From the IMG/VR virus record IMGVR_UViG_2671180778_000012, positions 1-9,480 of that record: a stretch of DNA of 9,480 nt. One strand, written 5' to 3'. Positions within the stretch are counted from its first letter, which is position 1; every line of letters starts with the position of its first letter. Origin of the DNA: a virus. Its lineage: Duplodnaviria > Heunggongvirae > Uroviricota > Caudoviricetes. A model generated the notes under the pieces. That model was not told the DNA's origin and made no database searches. It saw only the letters and a program-made list of their open reading frames with translations. Both the position numbers and the translations under genes were made by a program. Shown in pieces: positions 823 to 8,481 of the stretch.

Positions 823-856
823 TATCACCGTTGTTACTTAGACGTACACGGTGATA
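823..856. promoter_or_regulatory. Inverted repeat TATCACCG-N18-CGGTGATA overlapping the RBS/start region of the AlpA-like gene; candidate operator
   Basis: Arms at 823-830 and 849-856 are exact reverse complements. Possible -35 TTGATA at 815-820 just upstream. No convincing -10, so promoter assignment is tentative. Confidence 0.4.
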
Positions 857-859
857 GAT

Positions 860-1069
860 ATGAATTTAAAGAAATCTGATTTATCAACTGACCGCCTTAC
901 ACGTGCTGAAGCTGCTGCCTACCTTGGCGTTAACAATCAAACACTGGCGAACTGGGCGTGTACTGGCAAGGTAAAAATCCCTTTCCATAAACTTGGTCGC
1001 AAAGTGCTGTATATGCGCACTGATCTCGATGCTTATCTTGCATCCACTCGCAGAACGCAGACGGTGTAA
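860..1069 (+). CDS. Excisionase-family HTH DNA-binding protein (AlpA/Xis/Vis-like), 69 aa
   Basis: Sequence LTRAEAAAYLGVNNQTLANWACTGKVKIPFHKLGRKVLYMRTDLDAYL fits the excisionase-family (AlpA/Xis-type) DNA-binding domain pattern. ATG at 860 is preferred over the in-frame GTG at 851. GGTGA lies 5 nt upstream of the ATG. Confidence 0.75.
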   Translation: MNLKKSDLSTDRLTRAEAAAYLGVNNQTLANWACTGKVKIPFHKLGRKVLYMRTDLDAYLASTRRTQTV

Positions 1070-1182
1070 GGGGGAGTGATGGCACATAAAACAAAGGCGA
1101 CCGGGGGCGGTCGCCAATGGATACACACTAAACTTGAACGCATCACCAACAATGCCACATTTGCGGCTGGTGGGCAATGTGA

Positions 1183-1371
1183 TCAGTCAGATTTGGTTCG
1201 TTCCAAGGTTTGCAACGAGAGCTTTTTCCTGTGCTCTTTAAGGAATTTCTCAAGAGCAAAAGCACATGGCGCGAATCTTTCTGATTCATGCTCTATCTTT
1301 CTGCGCCGTCTTTTCCGTGCCGGTGATAATGTTTTGGTCAATTCTTTATCGGTCATTGTGTTGTCCTGCAT
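1183..1371 (-). CDS. Small basic hypothetical protein (62 aa), uncertain
   Basis: ORF downstream of and co-oriented with the 1414..1719 gene. Charged, protein-like composition but no clear Shine-Dalgarno. Confidence 0.25.
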   Translation of the reverse strand: MQDNTMTDKELTKTLSPARKRRRRKIEHESERFAPCAFALEKFLKEHRKKLSLQTLERTKSD

Positions 1372-1413
1372 AGCAATGCGCCGTAATACCTTACACCACG
1401 GCGCTGATGGTGA

Positions 1414-1719
1414 TTACTCTGGTTCTTTGGTCTTGCGACGCTGGAGTTCTTCGCGTGCAACGGTGACAAGCTGCCCGATTTCTTCCGCTGCTTTGATGCC
1501 GATTTGTTCGACCTTAGCCAGGGCATCCAGTGACGACACAAGGGGATTTTCTCCGCTGCCTTCTGCTTGGCGGCGGGCTATTTCTCCGCGCATGGCGGTT
1601 ACGATAAATCCGGCATTGCTTTCGCCGTCCAGCTTAACGGATTCCATCCCTTGCATAACATCTAGTGGGACTCTGACAGTTGTCAGTTGTGATTTTGCGT
1701 TTTTGTTAGCCGTTGCCAT
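1414..1719 (-). CDS. Hypothetical 101-aa protein, possibly a ribbon-helix-helix-type DNA-binding regulator
   Basis: AGGAG Shine-Dalgarno 8 nt upstream of the ATG (plus-strand CTCCT at 1728-1732). About 40% of codons start with G, a strong coding signature. No Cys, E/A/K-rich. N-terminal SQLTTVRVPLDVMQGM resembles an RHH beta-strand plus helix; this fold assignment is inference. Confidence 0.65.
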   Translation of the reverse strand: MATANKNAKSQLTTVRVPLDVMQGMESVKLDGESNAGFIVTAMRGEIARRQAEGSGENPLVSSLDALAKVEQIGIKAAEEIGQLVTVAREELQRRKTKEPE

Positions 1720-1737
1720 TTCTGAAACTCCTAATCA

Positions 1738-1818
1738 TCGGTGTGTTTCAGTATACACAAAAAAAGAAATACAAAAAGCCTTGACGTGTGTTTCATGCGC
1801 TCATAACATGAAACACAC
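1738..1818. promoter_or_regulatory. Divergent promoter/operator region: 12-bp perfect inverted repeat GTGTGTTTCATG-N9-CATGAAACACAC (1786-1818), extra half-site GTGTGTTTCA (1741-1750), candidate sigma70 promoter (-35 TTGACG 1781-1786, -10 TAACAT 1804-1809)
   Basis: Palindrome and half-site copies read directly. Promoter hexamers have 17-bp spacing and overlap the palindrome. Region lies between the minus-strand gene start (1719) and the + strand small-ORF operon. Confidence 0.55.
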
Positions 1819-1916
1819 CGAAAGGATTGTTGAAATACAAAGAGCAACGCCCCGCAGTGCCGGAAACACATACGGGGCGTCTAACCACCAACGATAACGA
1901 GAGTATCGAGGCAGCT

Positions 1917-2120
1917 ATGAGAAATCATACCATACACCCGCAAGGGCGGGACTCGTACAACCTGAATAAATACATCTGGCGTTTTATCGCCCTGAGCACG
2001 GCACAACCGCGCGTGATTACCATTGAGGCCAGCAGCGAACAGGAAGCACGCCAGCAATCCCCGGCTGGCTGCGTGATGGTATTCGCCGCCCGTATTCGTC
2101 AGGGGGGGGGCCATGCCTGA
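1917..2120 (+). CDS. Small hypothetical protein (67 aa); faint resemblance to P4-type Icd-like proteins is a guess
   Basis: ATG at 1917 preceded by GAGG 5 nt upstream. The annotated upstream start at 1827 is TTG and unlikely. Ends ...FAARIRQGGGHA; the Gly codons are the G9 tract. Confidence 0.4.
   Translation: MRNHTIHPQGRDSYNLNKYIWRFIALSTAQPRVITIEASSEQEARQQSPAGCVMVFAARIRQGGGHA
2102..2110. repeat. G9 homopolymer tract at the junction of two small ORFs
   Basis: Nine consecutive G at 2102-2110, immediately before the ATG at 2113 and inside the last codons of the 1917..2120 ORF. Confidence 0.95.
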
Positions 2121-2439: not shown

Positions 2440-2739
2440 ATGAGAACATATTTATCTGGCTTGACTGCCAGCGGTTATGCACACCCCCAAATTATCCCCG
2501 GCGCTATTTATCTGGATAAGAACGGTAACAGAGTAACGGTAAAAGAACTGATGTTTGACCGTGTGTATTTTATTCGTGATGGCTATTCATTTCATAGTTC
2601 GCTGAACGTGGAGATCTTTATTAGCAGATTCAGGCGGGAAATCCCGCTTTCCAGAAAAAACCATGTGTCACGTGTGAATGTGGATAAAAAACTACAGGAA
2701 CTGAAAAACATGATTGCCGCGTGGAGAGAGCAGAAATGA
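2440..2739 (+). CDS. Hypothetical protein (99 aa)
   Basis: ATG at 2440 with GGGGA 9 nt upstream. Stop TGA overlaps the primase ATG (ATGA at 2736-2739), suggesting translational coupling. Confidence 0.5.
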   Translation: MRTYLSGLTASGYAHPQIIPGAIYLDKNGNRVTVKELMFDRVYFIRDGYSFHSSLNVEIFISRFRREIPLSRKNHVSRVNVDKKLQELKNMIAAWREQK

Positions 2740-4553
2740 AAAAAGCGCCAAATTTAAAACACCAGCCGCGTGACAAAATGACGGAAGTCATCATTTTTGC
2801 GGGTAGTGATGCGTGGGCACATGCGAAGCAGTGGCAGGAACAGGACGGGCGACTGGCTGGCGATAACGTGCCACCTGTCTGGCTTGGAGAGCAACAACTT
2901 GCCGAACTGGACAACCTGCAAATCGTACCGGACGGACGCTATCGCGTGCGTCTCTATCAGGCGGGGTTATTGCGTCCGGGGCTTGTTAATACCATCGGGC
3001 AGAAACTGGCAGTGGCAGGTGTCAGGGATGCTGATTATTACCCTGAAGGAATGCACAGCCAGAAACGGGAGAACTGGCGCGAATATCTGGAACGTGAACG
3101 GGCAGAGCAGGCGGAAAAGAAAAAGGTAGTTGAACTGCCTGTAAAGAAAAAAGAGCGGGTAAAAGACGATAACGCGTCATCACTGGCGCTTAACCAGATG
3201 GGAGCAAGTCAACGCGGCGAAGTTCTCCTGGCACATTATGGCGGTGAACTGGCGATTCATGCTGACTCTGACACTGTTCACCATTACAACGGCGTTGTAT
3301 GGGAGCCAGTACAGGATAAAGAATTACAGCGAGCTATGGCACAGATTTTCATTGATGCGGAGATCAGCTATTCGCAGAACGCCATTAAATCGGCGGTCGA
3401 TACCATGAAGTTAAGTTTGCCTGTAATGGGGAATACAGCCCGTAACCTGATTGGATTCAGTAACGGGGTATTTGATACCAGAACAGGTAATTTTCGGGAG
3501 CATAACAAAAACGACTGGTTGTTAATTGCCAGTGAATTACCTTTCAGCCCACCAGCAGAGGGGGAAACGCTGGCAACACATGCGCCGAATTTCTGGAAGT
3601 GGTTACGCCGTTCGGTGGCTGAGAATGACCGCAAGGCGGATCGCGTACTGGCTGCATTATTCATGGTGCTGGCGAACCGGTACGACTGGCAGTTATTCAT
3701 TGAGGTAACAGGTCCAGGGGGAAGTGGTAAAAGCGTGATGGCGGAGATTTGCACCATGCTGGCGGGTAAGGCCAACACAGTATCGGCAAGCATGAAGGCG
3801 CTGGAAGATGCAAGGGAACGCGCGTTAGTGGTTGGCTTTTCGCTGATTATCATGCCGGATATGACCCGCTACGCTGGTGATGGGGCAGGGATTAAGGCTA
3901 TTACAGGCGGTGACAAGGTGGCAATTGACCCGAAACACAAAGCCCCCTACTCAACGCGTATTCCGGCAGTAGTGCTGGCGGTTAACAATAACGCCATGTC
4001 ATTCAGTGACCGCAGCGGGGGGATCTCACGTCGTCGGGTGATATTCAATTTTTCGGAAGTTGTACCGGAGAACGAACGTGATCCAATGCTGGCGGAAAAA
4101 ATAGAAGGTGAGCTGGCGGTAGTGATTCGCCATCTGCTTACACGGTTTGCTGACCAGGACGAAGCCAGACGCCTGTTATATGAGCAGCAGAAATCTGAAG
4201 AAGCACTGGCGATAAAGCGAGAGGGGGATTCGCTGGTGGACTTCTGCGGCTATCTCATGGCGTCGGTAATGTGTGATGGCCTGTTAGTGGGTAATGCTGA
4301 AATTGTGCCATTCAGCCCACGCAGGTATCTCTATCATGCCTATCTGGCTTATATGAGGGCACATGGGTTTGGTAAACCTGTAACACTGACGCGCTTCGGT
4401 AAAGATATGCCGGGGGCAATGGCGGAATATGGCAGGGAGTATATGAAACGGAAAACGAAGCACGGTTTGCGTTCAAACGTGACACTGACGGAGGAATCAG
4501 AAGACTGGATGCCATCATGTGTATCGGTCACTAATGACGATAGCAAAAATTAA
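2736..4553 (+). CDS. P4 alpha-type phage/plasmid primase-helicase (D5_N / primase C-terminal region plus SF3 P-loop NTPase)
   Basis: Walker A GPGGSGKS. Motifs NGVFDTRTG and RRRVIFNFSE are typical of the P4-family primase C-terminal / D5 helicase region. ATG at 2736 preferred over GTG at 2721 (GGAGAGAG 5 nt upstream). The N-terminal ~250 aa carry no motif I recognise. Confidence 0.85.
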   Translation: MKKAPNLKHQPRDKMTEVIIFAGSDAWAHAKQWQEQDGRLAGDNVPPVWLGEQQLAELDNLQIVPDGRYRVRLYQAGLLRPGLVNTIGQKLAVAGVRDADYYPEGMHSQKRENWREYLERERAEQAEKKKVVELPVKKKERVKDDNASSLALNQMGASQRGEVLLAHYGGELAIHADSDTVHHYNGVVWEPVQDKELQRAMAQIFIDAEISYSQNAIKSAVDTMKLSLPVMGNTARNLIGFSNGVFDTRTGNFREHNKNDWLLIASELPFSPPAEGETLATHAPNFWKWLRRSVAENDRKADRVLAALFMVLANRYDWQLFIEVTGPGGSGKSVMAEICTMLAGKANTVSASMKALEDARERALVVGFSLIIMPDMTRYAGDGAGIKAITGGDKVAIDPKHKAPYSTRIPAVVLAVNNNAMSFSDRSGGISRRRVIFNFSEVVPENERDPMLAEKIEGELAVVIRHLLTRFADQDEARRLLYEQQKSEEALAIKREGDSLVDFCGYLMASVMCDGLLVGNAEIVPFSPRRYLYHAYLAYMRAHGFGKPVTLTRFGKDMPGAMAEYGREYMKRKTKHGLRSNVTLTEESEDWMPSCVSVTNDDSKN

Positions 4554-4566
4554 ACTTATGGAATAA

Positions 4567-4795
4567 CTGTTCACCACTGTTCACCCTGTCATAAATATCT
4601 TTTATATCAGTATATTATAGGGTGAACAGTTATTTATGAACTGTTCACCAAACTATTCACTGTTCACCTTTTTGATTGTTTATTGAGCTTCAAGGGTGAA
4701 CAGTGGTGAACAGTTGGTGAATAGTTTTTGTGAAACTGTTCACCCCTTAACATTATGAATTAAAAGAGAAAATATCAAAAGGTGAACAGGTGAAG
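4567..4795. repeat. Iteron array, putative replication origin: 9-bp CTGTTCACC / GGTGAACAG in 9 perfect and 2 degenerate copies, flanking AT-rich segments
   Basis: Forward copies at 4567, 4577, 4641, 4660, 4736; reverse copies at 4621, 4695, 4705, 4781; degenerate copies at 4652 and 4716. Tandem pairs are 10 bp apart. AT-rich 4591-4620 is flanked by inverted copies. Array begins 14 bp after the primase stop. Confidence 0.65.
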
Positions 4796-4925
4796 GGTTA
4801 AAACGCAAAAATTTTAATTTACTGCTGTGAGATAAAGCCTATGACAGCGAAGCACACCAAAACAACAGGCGGGGAATGATGATCCGTACGGGGATAACAT
4901 ACCGTTTTAAGCAACGAGTAACAGA

Positions 4926-4948
4926 AGCCGGAGCAATCCGGCTTTTTT
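4926..4948 (+). terminator. Intrinsic terminator-like hairpin AGCCGGA-GCAA-TCCGGCT followed by a T run
   Basis: 7-bp perfect stem, GNRA-type GCAA loop, T run to 4948. Confidence 0.55.
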
Positions 4949-4950
4949 AT

Positions 4951-5022
4951 GGGTCCTCCCGGTGTAGTGACCTGCCACGGGGCGGGAACGGCGCGGAAAA
5001 AGGCTGGTTTTTGCATTTTCAT
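4951..5022 (+). repeat. Conserved 72-bp non-coding element, copy A (second copy at 7487-7558)
   Basis: Hand alignment to 7487-7558 gives 66 of 72 identical positions. Both copies start 2 nt after a terminator T run. Confidence 0.8.
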
Positions 5023-5209
5023 GGCGGCGGCAGCATGTGTGATAATTTATTGATAATTAAAAGTTATTTCTGTTTTCACCTGTACAATATTTTTTTCTCC
5101 CTGTCATTAGACCAGTTTGCAATTAATTGAAATATATAAATAAATCTGTTTTTCACCTGCCAGGTGGAGTTGCCTGTGTCAAAACGTGTTCAGATGGCGG
5201 GATATTTAT

Positions 5210-5232
5210 GCCGGATTTTCTCCGGCTTTTTT
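5210..5232 (+). terminator. Intrinsic terminator-like hairpin GCCGGA-TTTTC-TCCGGC followed by T6
   Basis: 6-bp stem and T6 read directly. Stem sequence matches the core of the 4926 hairpin. Confidence 0.5.
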
Positions 5233-5334
5233 GTGTCTGAATCTCATTAATCTGTTTTTATGATAGAAATATGTTTATCTACCACTTTTATCGATCAATA
5301 ATGTGCGCAGTTTAGTCAGTAAGAGGAAGTTACT

Positions 5335-5544
5335 GTGAGTTGTATTAATGACCTGAACACGGGCGATATCAGGGGTGGTTCCGTTCATCTGGATGCGCAG
5401 ACCGTTATGCGCCTTAAGCAGTACAGGATCGACCATATAAATCATCATCCTGACCAACCATTACCAGGTGTGGCGCAGATTGTCAGACATGCCGTAAACA
5501 CCTGGCTTAATCAGAATGGTTTTGCATCGGTGGGGGAACAATGA
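5335..5544 (+). CDS. Small hypothetical protein (69 aa), possibly ribbon-helix-helix-like, translationally coupled to the protease-capsid gene
   Basis: GTG start with AAGAGGAAG 5 nt upstream. Stop overlaps the next ATG (ATGA at 5541-5544). SVHLDAQTVMRLKQY resembles an RHH strand-helix; fold assignment is inference. Confidence 0.5.
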   Translation: MSCINDLNTGDIRGGSVHLDAQTVMRLKQYRIDHINHHPDQPLPGVAQIVRHAVNTWLNQNGFASVGEQ

Positions 5545-7454
5545 ATCGCTGGTACACCATTAAGGCGGCGGATGTTCGCGGAGCGGCGGATATATCTATC
5601 TATGAGGAGATTGGCGGCTTCGGTGTTACTGCAAAGCAGTTCGCGGAAGACCTGAAAGCCCTTGGCGATGTTTCACATATCAATCTGAGGATCCATTCAC
5701 CAGGTGGTGATGTGTTTGAAGGCATCGCCATCTATAACCTGCTACGGAATCATCCGGCAGACATTACGGTTTATATCGATGGTGTTGCGGCTTCAATGGC
5801 TTCGGTGGTCGCAATGGCTGGCGATCGTGTTGTGATGCCGGAAAACGCCATGATGATGATACATAAGCCGTGGGGTATCTCTGGCGGAAATGCTGGTGAT
5901 ATGCGTGATTATGCTGATTTGCTGGATAAGGTGGAAACCGTGTTAGTCCCTGCTTATGCCAGAAAAACGGGCAAATCAGCACAGGAAATTACCGCCATGC
6001 TGGAAGATGAAACCTGGATGGACGGGAAAGAATGCCTTAAGCACGGTTTTGCTGATGAATTGTTGCCATCCGTCAGAGCAATGGCGCGAATTGAATCGAA
6101 GCGCACAGGAGATTTTTTACATATGCCGGAAACCATTAAAGGAATGATTACACCGCCACAGGGAGCGGCAAATATTGCTGGTAATGAACAGAAACGCATC
6201 AATGGAATAAGTGAAGTGTTTAGCCTGTTCGGCAGTCGTTACGACGGGATCAAAATGGCGTGTCTGGAAGATGCATCATGTACACCGGAAATGGCCCGTG
6301 AAAAGCTGTTGAACGAGCTGGGGCGCGAGTCCACGCCATCCAATAAAAATACCCCGCCTCATATCTATGCCGGAAACGGAAACATAACAGGTGATGCAAT
6401 TCGTCAGGGGCTTTATTCCCGTCTTGGGTATGAACGGCCTGAACGAGGCAACCCTTACGCGATGATGAGTCTTTTTGAAATGGCCCAGGCATCACTGGTT
6501 GATCGTGGTATCACTGTGAGCGGTTTTATTAATCGCTCGCAGGTTGTTAATGCGGCTTTTACACACAGCAGCAGTGATTTTTCTCATATTCTGGCTGGTG
6601 GGGCTGAAAAATCTGTACTGAAAGGCTGGCAGGACAGCGGCGAAACGTTCCAGAAATGGACGCGTACCGGTTCGCTTTCAAACTTTCATGAAGCAAAGCG
6701 CGTTGGTCTGAATGGTTTTTCAAAGCTGGATAAAGTACCGGAAGGTGCGGAATATAAATACATCACCACCAGCGATAAAGGTGTACCTATTGCGCTGGCC
6801 ACGTACGGGAATATATTTTCCGTTACCCGTCAGGCCATTATCAACGATGACCTGACCCAGTTAACTACAATCCCCATGGCGATGGGACGCGCAGCTGCCA
6901 GAACAGTTGGCAATCTGGTTTATCTCCTGTTAACCAGCAACGGCAAGTTTACGGATGGTAAAGCGTTATTCCATGCCGATCATAAAAATCTTATTGCGAA
7001 GGATATGGACATGGAGGGGCTTAACGAAGCCCGTAAGCTGATGCGCCTCCAGGAAGACGCTAACGGCGATTCGCTGAATATTACCCCTGCATTTGTCCTG
7101 GTCCCCGCCGCGCTGGAGTCTGCCGCACATCGCGCCATTCTGTCATCGTCATCACTCTTTCCGGTTGATGGCGTGGGCACTATCAATCAGAACCCCGGCA
7201 TCATTAACGTGGTGAAAGATATGGCGGAGGTAATCGTTGAGCCACGTCTTGATAAAGCCAATAACAAGGAGTGGTATGTGGCAGCGGCGAAGGGTATGGA
7301 CACGATAGAGGTCGCTTATCTTGATGGTATTGATACGCCATATCTTGAGGAGCAGGAGGGCTTTACTGTTGATGGCGTCGCCTGGAAGGTGCGCATAGAT
7401 GCAGGTGTCGCGGCCCTCGACTATCGCGGATTACTGAAATCGAGTGGAGCATGA
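5541..7454 (+). CDS. ClpP-like (S14) prohead maturation protease fused to HK97-fold major capsid protein (637 aa)
   Basis: N-terminal ~190 aa has ClpP-type motifs (GVAASMASVVAMAG with active-site Ser context; MIHKPWG with His). C-terminal ~400 aa has the length and composition of an HK97/Mu gpT-like major head protein. GGGGGA 3 nt upstream of the ATG. Confidence 0.8.
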   Translation: MNRWYTIKAADVRGAADISIYEEIGGFGVTAKQFAEDLKALGDVSHINLRIHSPGGDVFEGIAIYNLLRNHPADITVYIDGVAASMASVVAMAGDRVVMPENAMMMIHKPWGISGGNAGDMRDYADLLDKVETVLVPAYARKTGKSAQEITAMLEDETWMDGKECLKHGFADELLPSVRAMARIESKRTGDFLHMPETIKGMITPPQGAANIAGNEQKRINGISEVFSLFGSRYDGIKMACLEDASCTPEMAREKLLNELGRESTPSNKNTPPHIYAGNGNITGDAIRQGLYSRLGYERPERGNPYAMMSLFEMAQASLVDRGITVSGFINRSQVVNAAFTHSSSDFSHILAGGAEKSVLKGWQDSGETFQKWTRTGSLSNFHEAKRVGLNGFSKLDKVPEGAEYKYITTSDKGVPIALATYGNIFSVTRQAIINDDLTQLTTIPMAMGRAAARTVGNLVYLLLTSNGKFTDGKALFHADHKNLIAKDMDMEGLNEARKLMRLQEDANGDSLNITPAFVLVPAALESAAHRAILSSSSLFPVDGVGTINQNPGIINVVKDMAEVIVEPRLDKANNKEWYVAAAKGMDTIEVAYLDGIDTPYLEEQEGFTVDGVAWKVRIDAGVAALDYRGLLKSSGA

Positions 7455-7461
7455 CAACAAG

Positions 7462-7484
7462 GGCGGCGATAGCCGCCTTTTTTT
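7462..7484 (+). terminator. Intrinsic terminator GGCGGC-GATA-GCCGCC followed by T7, 8 nt after the capsid stop
   Basis: Perfect 6-bp GC stem, 4-nt loop, seven T. Confidence 0.7.
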
Positions 7485-7486
7485 AC

Positions 7487-7558
7487 GGGTCCTCCCGGTG
7501 GGGTGGTCTGCCACGGGGCGGGAGCGGCGCGGAAAAAGGCTAGTTTTTGCATTTTCAT
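7487..7558 (+). repeat. Conserved 72-bp non-coding element, copy B
   Basis: 66 of 72 identity with 4951-5022. Lies 154 bp upstream of the Nu1-like gene. Confidence 0.8.
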
Positions 7559-7711
7559 TCGTCATCATCATCTTTCTATGATATTGAATTTTAAGTGTTT
7601 TTATTTTTGGTATGTTAATTTTGCTTGTTTTATGCTCAACATATAGCGCATTTTTTGACCTCTTCTGAAAGTTGTTCGCAAGATGCATGTTTAAAACATT
7701 CTGGAGCGGGT

Positions 7712-8197
7712 ATGGATCGAGAACTGAAAAATCTGATGCTGAACATTAATCAACTGGCGGCGATAGCGGGAATATGTCGTCAGACTGCGGCGGCAAGGCT
7801 GAAAAACATCCAGCCAGCCGGAGGGCATGACAAGCTAAAACTCTATCGGGTGACTGACATTCTGACCTGTTTTCTTGATCTTCCCGTTCCGGCATCACTG
7901 GAAGAAATGGAGCCACATGACCGTAAGGCCTGGTATCAGTCCGAACGTGAGCGCCTCAAGTTCGAACAGGAAACGGCGCAACTCATACCCGCCGATGATG
8001 TGCGAAAAGAGATGGCTATATGGGGGGAAATCGTAAGCGAGGAACTGGCAAAACTCCCCAATATTCTGGCACGTGATGCCGGGCTTAAACCGATGGCAGT
8101 AAACAGAGTGCAGTCAATTATTGACGATTTGCGTAATCAGATTATCAGCCGGATGGTAAAAAATGACGTAGTGAATGAGGTCGCAAAACAGGCATGA
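7712..8197 (+). CDS. Lambda Nu1-like small terminase subunit homologue (TerS / packaging-redirection type), 161 aa
   Basis: N-terminal HTH INQLAAIAGICRQTAAARLKN parallels lambda Nu1 KKQLADIFGASIRTIQNW, recalled from memory. ATG at 7712 with GGAG 5 nt upstream. The upstream TTG at 7625 is unlikely to be the start. Confidence 0.7.
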   Translation: MDRELKNLMLNINQLAAIAGICRQTAAARLKNIQPAGGHDKLKLYRVTDILTCFLDLPVPASLEEMEPHDRKAWYQSERERLKFEQETAQLIPADDVRKEMAIWGEIVSEELAKLPNILARDAGLKPMAVNRVQSIIDDLRNQIISRMVKNDVVNEVAKQA

Positions 8198-8481
8198 TAA
8201 TGACCGAATCTGAAATACTGCGATTAATCCGCTGTGCTGGTGGAATCAGCCAGTTGGCTGACGAACAGGCCGCGCAGCCGGATACAGTCACCGCTGAAAA
8301 TTACGCGCGTGTGGTGGCTGAGGTGATGCGCCGTGACGGTATTGAGCTTAACGGCGTGGATATGCGCAACATACGAACTAGAGTTCTTGAGTTGCTGGCA
8401 TACCGTCGCCGTTCTCAACAACGGAGGGAGAGCGCGAAAAATACTTACCAGTGGAAGAAGCCGGAACGGTTGCAGCGGTAG
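8194..8481 (+). CDS. Hypothetical protein (95 aa)
   Basis: ATG overlaps the TerS stop (ATGA at 8194-8197). No family recognised. Too short to be a large terminase. Confidence 0.45.
   Translation: MIMTESEILRLIRCAGGISQLADEQAAQPDTVTAENYARVVAEVMRRDGIELNGVDMRNIRTRVLELLAYRRRSQQRRESAKNTYQWKKPERLQR

Follow-up and report, generated by a model that had tools for sequence, protein, structure and literature searches.

The question raised by this locus is what reads the repeats that lie between two divergent genes of a mobile element, and what would be controlled when they are occupied. In a preliminary description, an exact 12-bp palindrome with a 9-nt gap was noted over a candidate promoter, a further half-site was placed near the leader of the minus-strand gene, and multi-site operators in such divergent regions were taken to mark the on/off switch of a mobile element. 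We conclude that the inverted repeat is probably the right-hand operator (O_R) of a genetic switch in which a repressor related to YlcI, predicted from its sequence, silences a replication operon together with its own gene.

Judged by its gene content the window, that is, the whole stretch of 9,480 nucleotides analysed, belongs to a Gram-negative phage-inducible chromosomal island (PICI), a phage satellite. Such islands were recognised by co-directional int and alpA genes, a primase gene and ori repeats downstream, a size of ~10-15 kb, the absence of tail and lysis genes, the frequent presence of a capsid gene and a specific chromosomal site. This layout is found in the identical island of E. 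coli D5, which occupies ~10 kb between cspD/yljB and clpS, has its integrase upstream of alpA, and comprises int, alpA, ylcI, icd-like, DUF4222, primase, protease/capsid fusion and DUF1441 genes. The 901 bp around the palindrome are 100% identical in several E. coli chromosomes, and the region was matched in 1,768 of 5,426 complete E. coli genomes, in 390 of which at least 80% of it is covered. In the window the icd-like gene is followed by orf106, a DUF4222 gene and a D5-type primase gene (2721-4553); iterons are present at 4552-4767, and a ClpP-protease/major-capsid fusion (5541-7454) and a DUF1441 terminase-small-like gene are also found. The leftward unit consists of ylcI, orf57 and a terminator read from 1115 to 1096 (Table 1). 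In a later survey the genes were found to be mostly unidirectional (PMC10111431).

Table 1. Features of the ylcI-icd control region and its neighbourhood (window coordinates)
Feature	Position	Strand	Remarks
alpA, HTH_17 excisionase/activator family	851-1069	+	Pfam; upstream context, not the site reader
Stop-free frame of 828 nt, P4 eta-like organisation	1070-1897	+	begins right after the alpA stop, in the frame of alpA
Intrinsic terminator of the ylcI-orf57 unit	1096-1115	-	8-bp GC stem followed by TTTGTTTTAT; terminator scan
orf57, small basic 57-aa protein, co-transcribed	1183-1356	-	downstream of ylcI; phrog_21027, unknown function; conserved
ylcI-like gene, 101 aa, predicted ribbon-helix-helix repressor	1414-1719	-	ribosome-binding site AGGAG at 1728-1732
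S1, left half of O_L, GTGTGTTTC	1741-1749	+	exact copy; 98% conserved relative to Xenorhabdus/Photorhabdus; class-specific word here in other islands
Candidate -10 of the ylcI promoter	1750-1755	-	tentative; AGTATA on the plus strand, TATACT on the minus strand; conserved hexamer, not called by the scan
S2, right degenerate half of O_L, GAAATACAA	1766-1774	-	100% conserved across genera; other classes have their own word
-35 of P_icd, TTGACG	1781-1786	+	promoter scan; TTGAC, TTGAA or TTGCA at the equivalent position in all relatives
S3, left arm of O_R	1786-1797	+	half-site 1786-1794, 96% conserved; 12-bp arm to 1797 in the window's lineage
-10 of P_icd, TAACAT	1804-1809	+	promoter scan; TAnnnT-type hexamer at constant distance in relatives; start at ~1815-1817, within S4
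S4, right arm of O_R	1807-1818	-	half-site GAAACACAC at 1810-1818, 100% conserved
S5, possible degenerate fifth site, GAAATACAA	1832-1840	-	same sequence as S2; direct repeat; tentative
Structured leader of the rightward operon	1847-1908	+	hairpins 1 and 2; compensatory changes in 7 of 12 pairs, 18 loci
icd-like, first gene of the P_icd/O_R operon	1917-2120	+	NF033153, 69.6 bits; Pfam, PHROGs; annotation of the identical island

The same layout recurs in the model island EcCICFT073 of E. coli CFT073, which lies between roxA and phoQ. There a gene for a 59-aa YlcI/YnfO protein, C_RS30120, is divergent from icd-like, and two perfect 12-bp repeats (GTGGGCCACACC-N11-GTGGGCCACACC) lie over a promoter of the form TTGACG-18-TATAGT. 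The locus tag C_RS30120 is a late addition in RefSeq, and its gene occupies 1380473-1380652 of NC_004431.1. Induction of EcCICFT073 has been explained by the activator AlpA alone, with no repressor reported (PMC6092414).

Perfectly complementary arms, GTGTGTTTCATG and CATGAAACACAC, were returned by a repeat finder as the longest perfect inverted repeat of the window, so that the palindrome itself was borne out, gap included. The same is true of its overlap with the promoter elements: a promoter scan placed TTGACG and TAACAT 17 nt apart as the sole plus-strand match within 1300-2300, and the left arm begins on the last base of the -35 hexamer, while the right arm overlaps the -10 hexamer and covers the predicted start. 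A third exact copy of the half-site, GTGTGTTTCA, is present, as had been stated, at 1741-1750; it lies in the leader of the minus-strand gene. With its TCG prefix (1738-1750) it is complementary at 13 of 13 positions to 1809-1821. The three copies of this 10-mer compare with 0.62 expected, a count of three being reached in 3 of 200 shuffles. The core word GAAACACA occurs a fourth time at 1863-1870, inside a hairpin loop; this copy is probably coincidental, since in related sequences the loop does not follow the changes of the half-site.

For comparison, ylcI-icd control regions were gathered from E. coli islands and from Xenorhabdus, Photorhabdus, Enterobacter, Serratia, Erwinia, Yersinia and Phytobacter, giving 26 distinct intergenic sequences from as many related islands in about eight enterobacterial genera. 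Six Xenorhabdus/Photorhabdus elements encode, as does the window, the sequence QLTTVRV in the putative DNA-reading strand (residues 11-17) of the YlcI-like protein. In these six the O_R half-sites are identical to those of the window at 52/54 and 54/54 positions, and the 9 spacer positions outside the -10 at only 14/54 (26%); O_L is 98-100% identical between E. coli and these genera. Because the O_R half-sites have been kept and the spacer has diverged, the evolutionarily conserved unit, as read from this alignment, is a 9-bp half-site in the arrangement GTGTGTTTC-N15-GAAACACAC. The inner ATG/CAT that extends the arms to 12 bp is specific to the window's lineage.

A de novo search found the best repeated 8-mer in most loci at ~25, 49, 70 and 93 nt, counted from the ATG of ylcI, which corresponds to 1741, 1766, 1786 and 1810 of the window, sometimes with a fifth copy at ~115 (1832-1840). 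The half-site word is found, that is, at four or five fixed positions, S1 to S4 and possibly S5. What had been described as a third half-site is a real copy, but it is not a stray one: together with S2, its right-hand partner, it makes up a second dyad, O_L. The reverse complement of S2, TTGTATTTC, equals the half-site at 7 of 9 positions, and the pair equivalent to O_L is a good dyad in the related loci L002 (GTGTAAGAC-N16-GTCTTACAT) and L020 (TGTGATTC-N15-GAATCACA). The same search found a fifth copy ~22 bp past S4 in the window and in L014, L024 and L027; since such a copy is not consistent across all classes, S5 is put forward as a fifth site only tentatively.

O_R (S3/S4) brackets the spacer and the -10 of P_icd. 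O_L (S1/S2) fronts the leftward 101-aa gene and brackets its candidate -10, S1 sitting just downstream of this hexamer, in the leader. In most relatives the hexamer reads TATACT, TATATT or TATAAT (AGTATA, AATATA or ATTATA on the plus strand). It is treated as tentative because it was not called by the promoter scan, which found no convincing sigma-70 promoter for ylcI, there being a -10-like hexamer without a good -35.

Within any one island every copy of the site carries the same changed word at constant positions, and the word goes with residues 11-17 of the YlcI-like protein. GTGTGTTTC is paired with QLTTVRV or QLFTVRV, GTGTAAG with QSLTARI, TGTGATTC with KQISIRI, (G/T)ATTCAC with QQLNARF or QQINARF, GTGTAG(G/T)C with QMISTRV, GTGGGCCAC with QALKARV (the strand of EcCICFT073), and GTGTGTATTTA with xKNxRx; further words among the islands are TGGTATTCAC, GTGCGATTCAC and GTGTATATC. 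A table of cross-matches between words is block-diagonal by these residues. The word that goes with QLTTVRV is one and the same in E. coli, Xenorhabdus and Photorhabdus, as is that of QSLTARI in E. coli and Enterobacter soli, and the pairing holds despite differing integrase, AlpA and primase/replication partners. The strand alone does not set specificity, because L005 and L007 have QQLNARF in common and differ in the outer bases of the half-site (TGGTATTCAC versus GTGCGATTCAC). Co-inheritance also contributes to the correlation, since no more than 70-100 bp separate the variable ylcI codons from the sites.

The exact arrangement GTGTGTTTC-N15-GAAACACAC was found in 49 IMG/VR contigs, 48 of them carrying this same module. 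A divergent gene with an LTTVR(V/I) strand is present in 47; in the 48th, again the same element, the contig stops before the adjacent gene, and the remaining match, L054, is an unrelated metagenomic palindrome. The operator set is real and functional-looking, and the conservation of the half-sites together with the concerted change of the word supports the initial view of a multi-site operator over a promoter in the divergent control region of a mobile element.

That three to five distinct sites change in concert calls for a sequence-specific reader. The YlcI-like protein is the sole local candidate that varies, and on the sequence comparison the best reading is that this 101-aa member of the YlcI/YnfO family is the predicted reader and repressor of the sites. 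Of the two binders originally proposed, the 101-aa protein thus gains support, its strand co-varying with the word, and the AlpA-like protein does not co-vary.

We consider it improbable that the sites are operators for AlpA, for the Icd-like protein or for a factor of the host or helper phage, with the YlcI-like protein a bystander. The known master activator of these islands, AlpA, is needed for downstream expression in EcCICFT073 (PMC6092414), and the PHROGs label of the Icd-like family is "transcriptional repressor." Neither protein, however, changes when the word changes. L002-L004 have one common operator with AlpA proteins that are 14-25% identical to that of the window and are annotated as three different proteins, while L003, L005, L006 and L007 have near-identical AlpA proteins and four different operators; across operator classes, Icd-like proteins are 93% identical. 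Both were rejected as site readers on this lack of co-variation. The PHROG label probably derives from the historical "cI ORF" of P4, to which the Icd-like protein showed no BLASTP similarity. Within E. coli there are at least seven different words, which no host factor could track. As for helper phages, in whose genomes the preliminary description had proposed to look for the half-site, no match to it was found among 50,697 GenBank phages, nor did blastn and tblastn searches of the same phages find the region or the 101-aa protein.

What, then, is the YlcI-like protein? Over residues 9-50 it scores 63.2 bits with the NCBIfam model NF041551 (YlcI/YnfO), above the cutoff of 30, and an identical protein is annotated as YlcI/YnfO family in RefSeq. 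Variation in the N-terminal domain peaks, among 37 aligned homologues, at residues 11-17, which are flanked by the invariant S10 and R16-x-P18. An AlphaFold model (pLDDT 81 overall, 83-92 in the N-terminal part, and 83 for the N-domain modelled alone) has residues 11-17 extended, helices at 19-28 and 35-52/54, and a C-terminal helix at 59-97. The strand, two helices and short turn of a ribbon-helix-helix protein are present in this monomer model, in which strand pairing is not visible, and the inter-helix turn, DGESNAG, fits the G-x-S/T/N type. On this model we predict a DNA-binding protein of the ribbon-helix-helix (Arc-like) fold.

Profile alignment with Arc by hhalign, using an Arc sequence that agrees with PDB 1arq, gave P=0.0035 in the correct register, QLTTVRVPLDV being aligned with PQFNLRWPREV. 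L12, T14 and R16 are placed by this register at Gln9, Asn11 and Arg13 of Arc, which are its base-contacting residues. With Mnt only 14 columns were aligned. Some UniRef entries among the homologues are named "Arc-like DNA binding domain." In other searches no Pfam family, Arc and RHH_1 included, was matched at E <=10 by the whole protein or by either half; phmmer and hmmsearch against PDB sequences returned no ribbon-helix-helix protein; and Foldseek found no significant match in the PDB for either of two models. The C-terminal half gave a weak helix-hairpin-helix-like match to Hef (E=0.0038) which the AlphaFold model does not reproduce, and there are short homologues of 59 aa without the C-terminal extension. 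Our literature search found no paper giving a function for YlcI/YnfO or describing these operators, and a regulator of this type has not so far been described for this class of satellite.

A ribbon-helix-helix protein could also be the antitoxin of a type II toxin-antitoxin or addiction pair with orf57 as the toxin, the operators then being mainly autoregulatory. This we regard as unlikely. The orf57 gene accompanies ylcI in 13 of 34 loci and is missing from the other 21, including those of all non-E. coli genera, although ylcI and the operators are kept; no toxin family was matched, and no toxin gene is conserved downstream. Furthermore, the promoter on which the best operator, the perfect dyad, lies is directed away from ylcI, to the replication genes, and the 59-aa forms are without a C-terminal toxin-binding region.

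Very unlikely, in our opinion, is that the repeat acts as RNA, be it as a hairpin or terminator or in antisense immunity of the P4/P1 kind, with boxes like seqA, seqB and seqC and the GAAACACA loop as partner. The idea draws on a 46-nt segment that folds at -17.6 kcal/mol (z = -4.3), on the P4-like order of the island (alpA, a long ORF with an internal promoter, icd-like), and on the recurrence of the core word inside a conserved hairpin loop. The predicted start lies inside the right arm, however, so that the palindrome hairpin would be absent from the P_icd transcript, and the outer 9 bp of the arms alone are conserved, which would leave a 15-nt loop. The stem, stable in silico, is not conserved as a hairpin in relatives: L006 has 22 nt between the arms, and in EcCICFT073, L080, L013 and L026 the sites repeat in direct instead of inverted orientation. 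No T-run follows the palindrome stem. The loop of the hairpin at 1847-1880 does not co-vary with the half-site, and Rfam, which detected C4 and isrK in P4 as a positive control (74.9 and 60.8 bits), matched no family in the window at E <=1, RNA immunity of the P4/P1 type (RF01695, RF01394) included. That the repeats arose by chance in an AT-rich intergenic region is hardly credible: the repeated 8-mer count was reached in 40-78 of 200 shuffles for L002, L006, L011, L022 and L079 and in 176 of 200 for L080, but only 3 of 300 dinucleotide shuffles hold any perfect inverted repeat with arms of at least 12 and a spacer of up to 30, the repeated word lies at the same four positions across many independent classes, and the half-sites were kept across genera while the spacer diverged.

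Returning to repression by the YlcI-like protein, we propose binding of a single dimer to each 9-bp half-site GTGTGTTTC, with the N-terminal beta-strand as the element that would read the bases. Two dimers on O_R, at 1786-1794 and 1810-1818 with centres 24 bp apart, would flank the -35, spacer and -10, lie over the start site and block RNA polymerase at P_icd and so keep the icd-like/DUF4222/primase (replication) operon silent, and the second, weaker dyad O_L would provide negative autoregulation of ylcI. Direct repeats of the site, as in EcCICFT073, would fit omega-like binding of one dimer per site and not an RNA hairpin. The C-terminal helix would probably join dimers into tetramers across the 24-bp spacing, as may be compared with NikR or Mnt; Mnt has a C-terminal helical tetramerisation domain. 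Several points tell against the proposal as a whole: a centre spacing of 24 bp is unusual for operators of the Arc/Mnt type, the 59-aa forms are without the extension, ylcI has no convincing sigma-70 promoter, and the published account of EcCICFT073 induction invokes AlpA alone. Loss of the extension was considered in connection with altered half-site spacing, and no simple rule emerged, the 59-aa forms having both 23-bp (EcCICFT073, L080) and 34-35-bp (L006, L007) spacings.

Several known systems resemble this arrangement in part. In immI of phage P22 (Arc/Mnt, O_arc/O_mnt, Pant/Pmnt) a small ribbon-helix-helix repressor, such as is predicted for the window, is encoded beside divergent promoters with operators overlapping promoter elements. 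The likeness extends to the proposed base reading by alternate residues of the N-terminal beta-strand and to R16-x-P18, which aligns with R13-W-P15 of Arc. Unlike P22 Arc, the window protein has no match to the Pfam Arc family; its half-site centres are ~24 bp apart as opposed to ~11 for Arc and Mnt, with four or five sites over ~100 bp, and the operon controlled would be icd-like followed by primase, whereas that of immI is the antirepressor. A further comparison is with NikR, whose operator is GTATGA-N16-TCATAC; the window protein has a single long predicted C-terminal helix in place of a metal-binding domain, and the function of its system would be mobile-element immunity. The omega repressor of pSM19035 (inc18 plasmids) binds contiguous 7-bp heptads, whereas the sites of the window measure 9-12 bp and are spaced 20-25 bp. 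A divergent repressor gene between the integration side and the replication module is also a feature of the Gram-positive PICIs (SaPIs), where it encodes Stl/Rpr (PMC6092414). Stl proteins are larger, of the helix-turn-helix type and unrelated in sequence to YlcI, and for Stl release by helper-phage proteins has been demonstrated. Gram-negative PICIs, unlike SaPIs, have been reported as AlpA-activated with no known repressor (PMC6092414).

The closest parallel in layout is the immunity region of P4, which likewise has an alpA homologue (vis), a long ORF at its 3' end, an internal promoter and replication genes. The P4 ORF, eta (8812-8168), overlaps the end of vis; it contains the internal promoter PLE and the immunity RNAs (CI RNA and seqA, with kil nested; PMC10111431), and must, according to the statement in PMC10111431 that cites Forti et al. 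1999, be translated to prevent termination. Immunity in P4 is RNA-based, as its Rfam matches to C4 and isrK reflect, whereas the window has the gene of a predicted protein repressor on the opposite strand together with DNA operators. The stop-free frame of the window is antisense to orf57 and ylcI and spans both operators, the promoter and hairpin 1. An equivalent open frame of 700-1,600 nt exists in 26 of 27 related loci, in most of them continuous with icd-like to its stop, and in these 27 loci the remaining two frames have stops every 18-135 nt. The same frame is open in 24 of the 26 distinct intergenic sequences; shuffles give any open frame in 4-15%. The "intergenic" region is thus open in one frame in nearly all relatives, and long "Icd-like" and pseudogene calls need re-evaluation. 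In the structured leader that follows, hairpin 1 (1847-1854/1873-1880) has an inner GTG/CAC stem and is followed by single-stranded TCTAACCACCAA, and hairpin 2 (1892-1896/1904-1908) abuts the Shine-Dalgarno sequence GAGG.

How the repressor would be released can be guessed at. AlpA-driven transcription and translation through the long frame, antisense over ylcI and across the operators, might override repression; such an override is suspected because the layout of the frame mirrors that of P4 eta, and it is speculation by analogy. Alternatively, a helper-phage anti-repressor may be responsible. In its widest form, which we put forward as a possibility of some doubt, the proposal is that YlcI/YnfO proteins would act as immunity repressors, so far unrecognised, in a large subgroup of Gram-negative PICIs that includes EcCICFT073, that orthogonal strand/word types would define immunity groups, and that the repressor gene, antisense within a translated, eta-like frame coupled to alpA, would be switched off, and its operators swept, by AlpA-driven transcription and translation. 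If true, a protein would have taken the place of P4's RNA immunity.

Ribbon-helix-helix repressors encoded on mobile elements along with their operators are already familiar, and the practical importance of this predicted member for satellite biology comes from its presence in a model island. If our reading is true, the replication operon is under a classical repressor/operator switch in a widespread group of satellites of E. coli and other enterobacteria; a near-full copy of the module is present in some 390 of 5,426 complete E. coli genomes, and its presence in EcCICFT073 makes the switch directly testable there. The matched strand/word pairs form a natural series that could show how specificity is encoded in ribbon-helix-helix proteins, and could supply orthogonal repressor/operator parts.

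The gene for the AlpA regulator is followed on its own strand by a long stop-free frame that 26 of 27 relatives conserve. The frame is reminiscent of eta/kil, the nested genes of the satellite P4 immunity region, of which eta overlaps the alpA homologue vis. It crosses orf57 and the YlcI/YnfO-family gene ylcI in antisense orientation, and then the operators and leader. The frame of the relatives is usually in frame with the icd-like gene, the first gene of the rightward operon, and parts of it carry the PGAP label "Icd-like pseudogene"; that of the window stops at TAA 1895–1897, 20 nt 5' of the icd ATG. At the other end, 5' of alpA, the 238-aa ORF at 1–717 matched nothing in Pfam, PHROG or NCBIfam; in the related locus L003 the equivalent position, which lies between int and alpA, is taken by a DUF6387 protein.

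Coordinates of the features described (window positions unless a locus is named)
Feature	Position	Strand	Remarks
Long stop-free frame	1070–1897	+	begins at alpA end
Same kind of frame, EcCICFT073 (L082)	4752–6053		likewise in 25 other loci
Strong terminator	1096–1115	-	3' of orf57
orf57	1183–1356	-	conserved, very basic 57-aa protein, phrog_21027; co-transcribed downstream of ylcI
C-terminal extension of 101-aa YlcI/YnfO protein	1414–1560	-	residues 55–101
59-aa YlcI/YnfO gene, EcCICFT073	L082 5474–5653 (NC_004431.1 1380473–1380652)		divergent from icd-like gene
Structured 5' leader of icd-like gene	1847–1908		hairpins 1847–1880 and 1892–1908
Iteron cluster GGTGAACAGT(T)	4552–4767		direct and inverted; directly 3' of primase stop
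80-nt direct repeat	4943–5022, 7479–7558		two copies, 91% identical

The orf57 gene accompanies 13 of the 34 ylcI loci, all 13 in E. coli. The 59-aa YlcI/YnfO forms lack the C-terminal extension that the 101-aa protein has. This extension matches Hef weakly (helix-hairpin-helix-like, E=0.0038), but is modelled by AlphaFold as a single long helix. The 59-aa gene of the model satellite EcCICFT073 received its RefSeq locus tag late; the promoter there (L082 5654–5852 region) is overlaid by two perfect 12-bp direct repeats, GTGGGCCACACC, at 11-nt spacing.

Between the two leader hairpins, the second of which adjoins the Shine-Dalgarno sequence of the icd-like gene, lies a conserved single-stranded TCTAACCACCAA. 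Compensatory changes were found in 7 of 12 leader pairs (18 loci), and the leader matched no Rfam family. A 65-nt piece (1837–1901) is present in O157 genomes without ylcI. The icd-like gene has at its 3' end a run of nine Gs (2102–2110), which just precedes the overlapping start of the next ORF (ATG 2113) and is possibly a slippage-prone tract; the protein reads QGGGHA here versus QGVxHA in relatives.

Each copy of the 80-nt repeat stands upstream of one late-module gene block (5335–7454 and 7625–8481), and the repeat may be a late regulatory element common to both. The iterons account for a weak Rfam match to MIR1508 in the window, and their cluster is probably the replication origin of the island.
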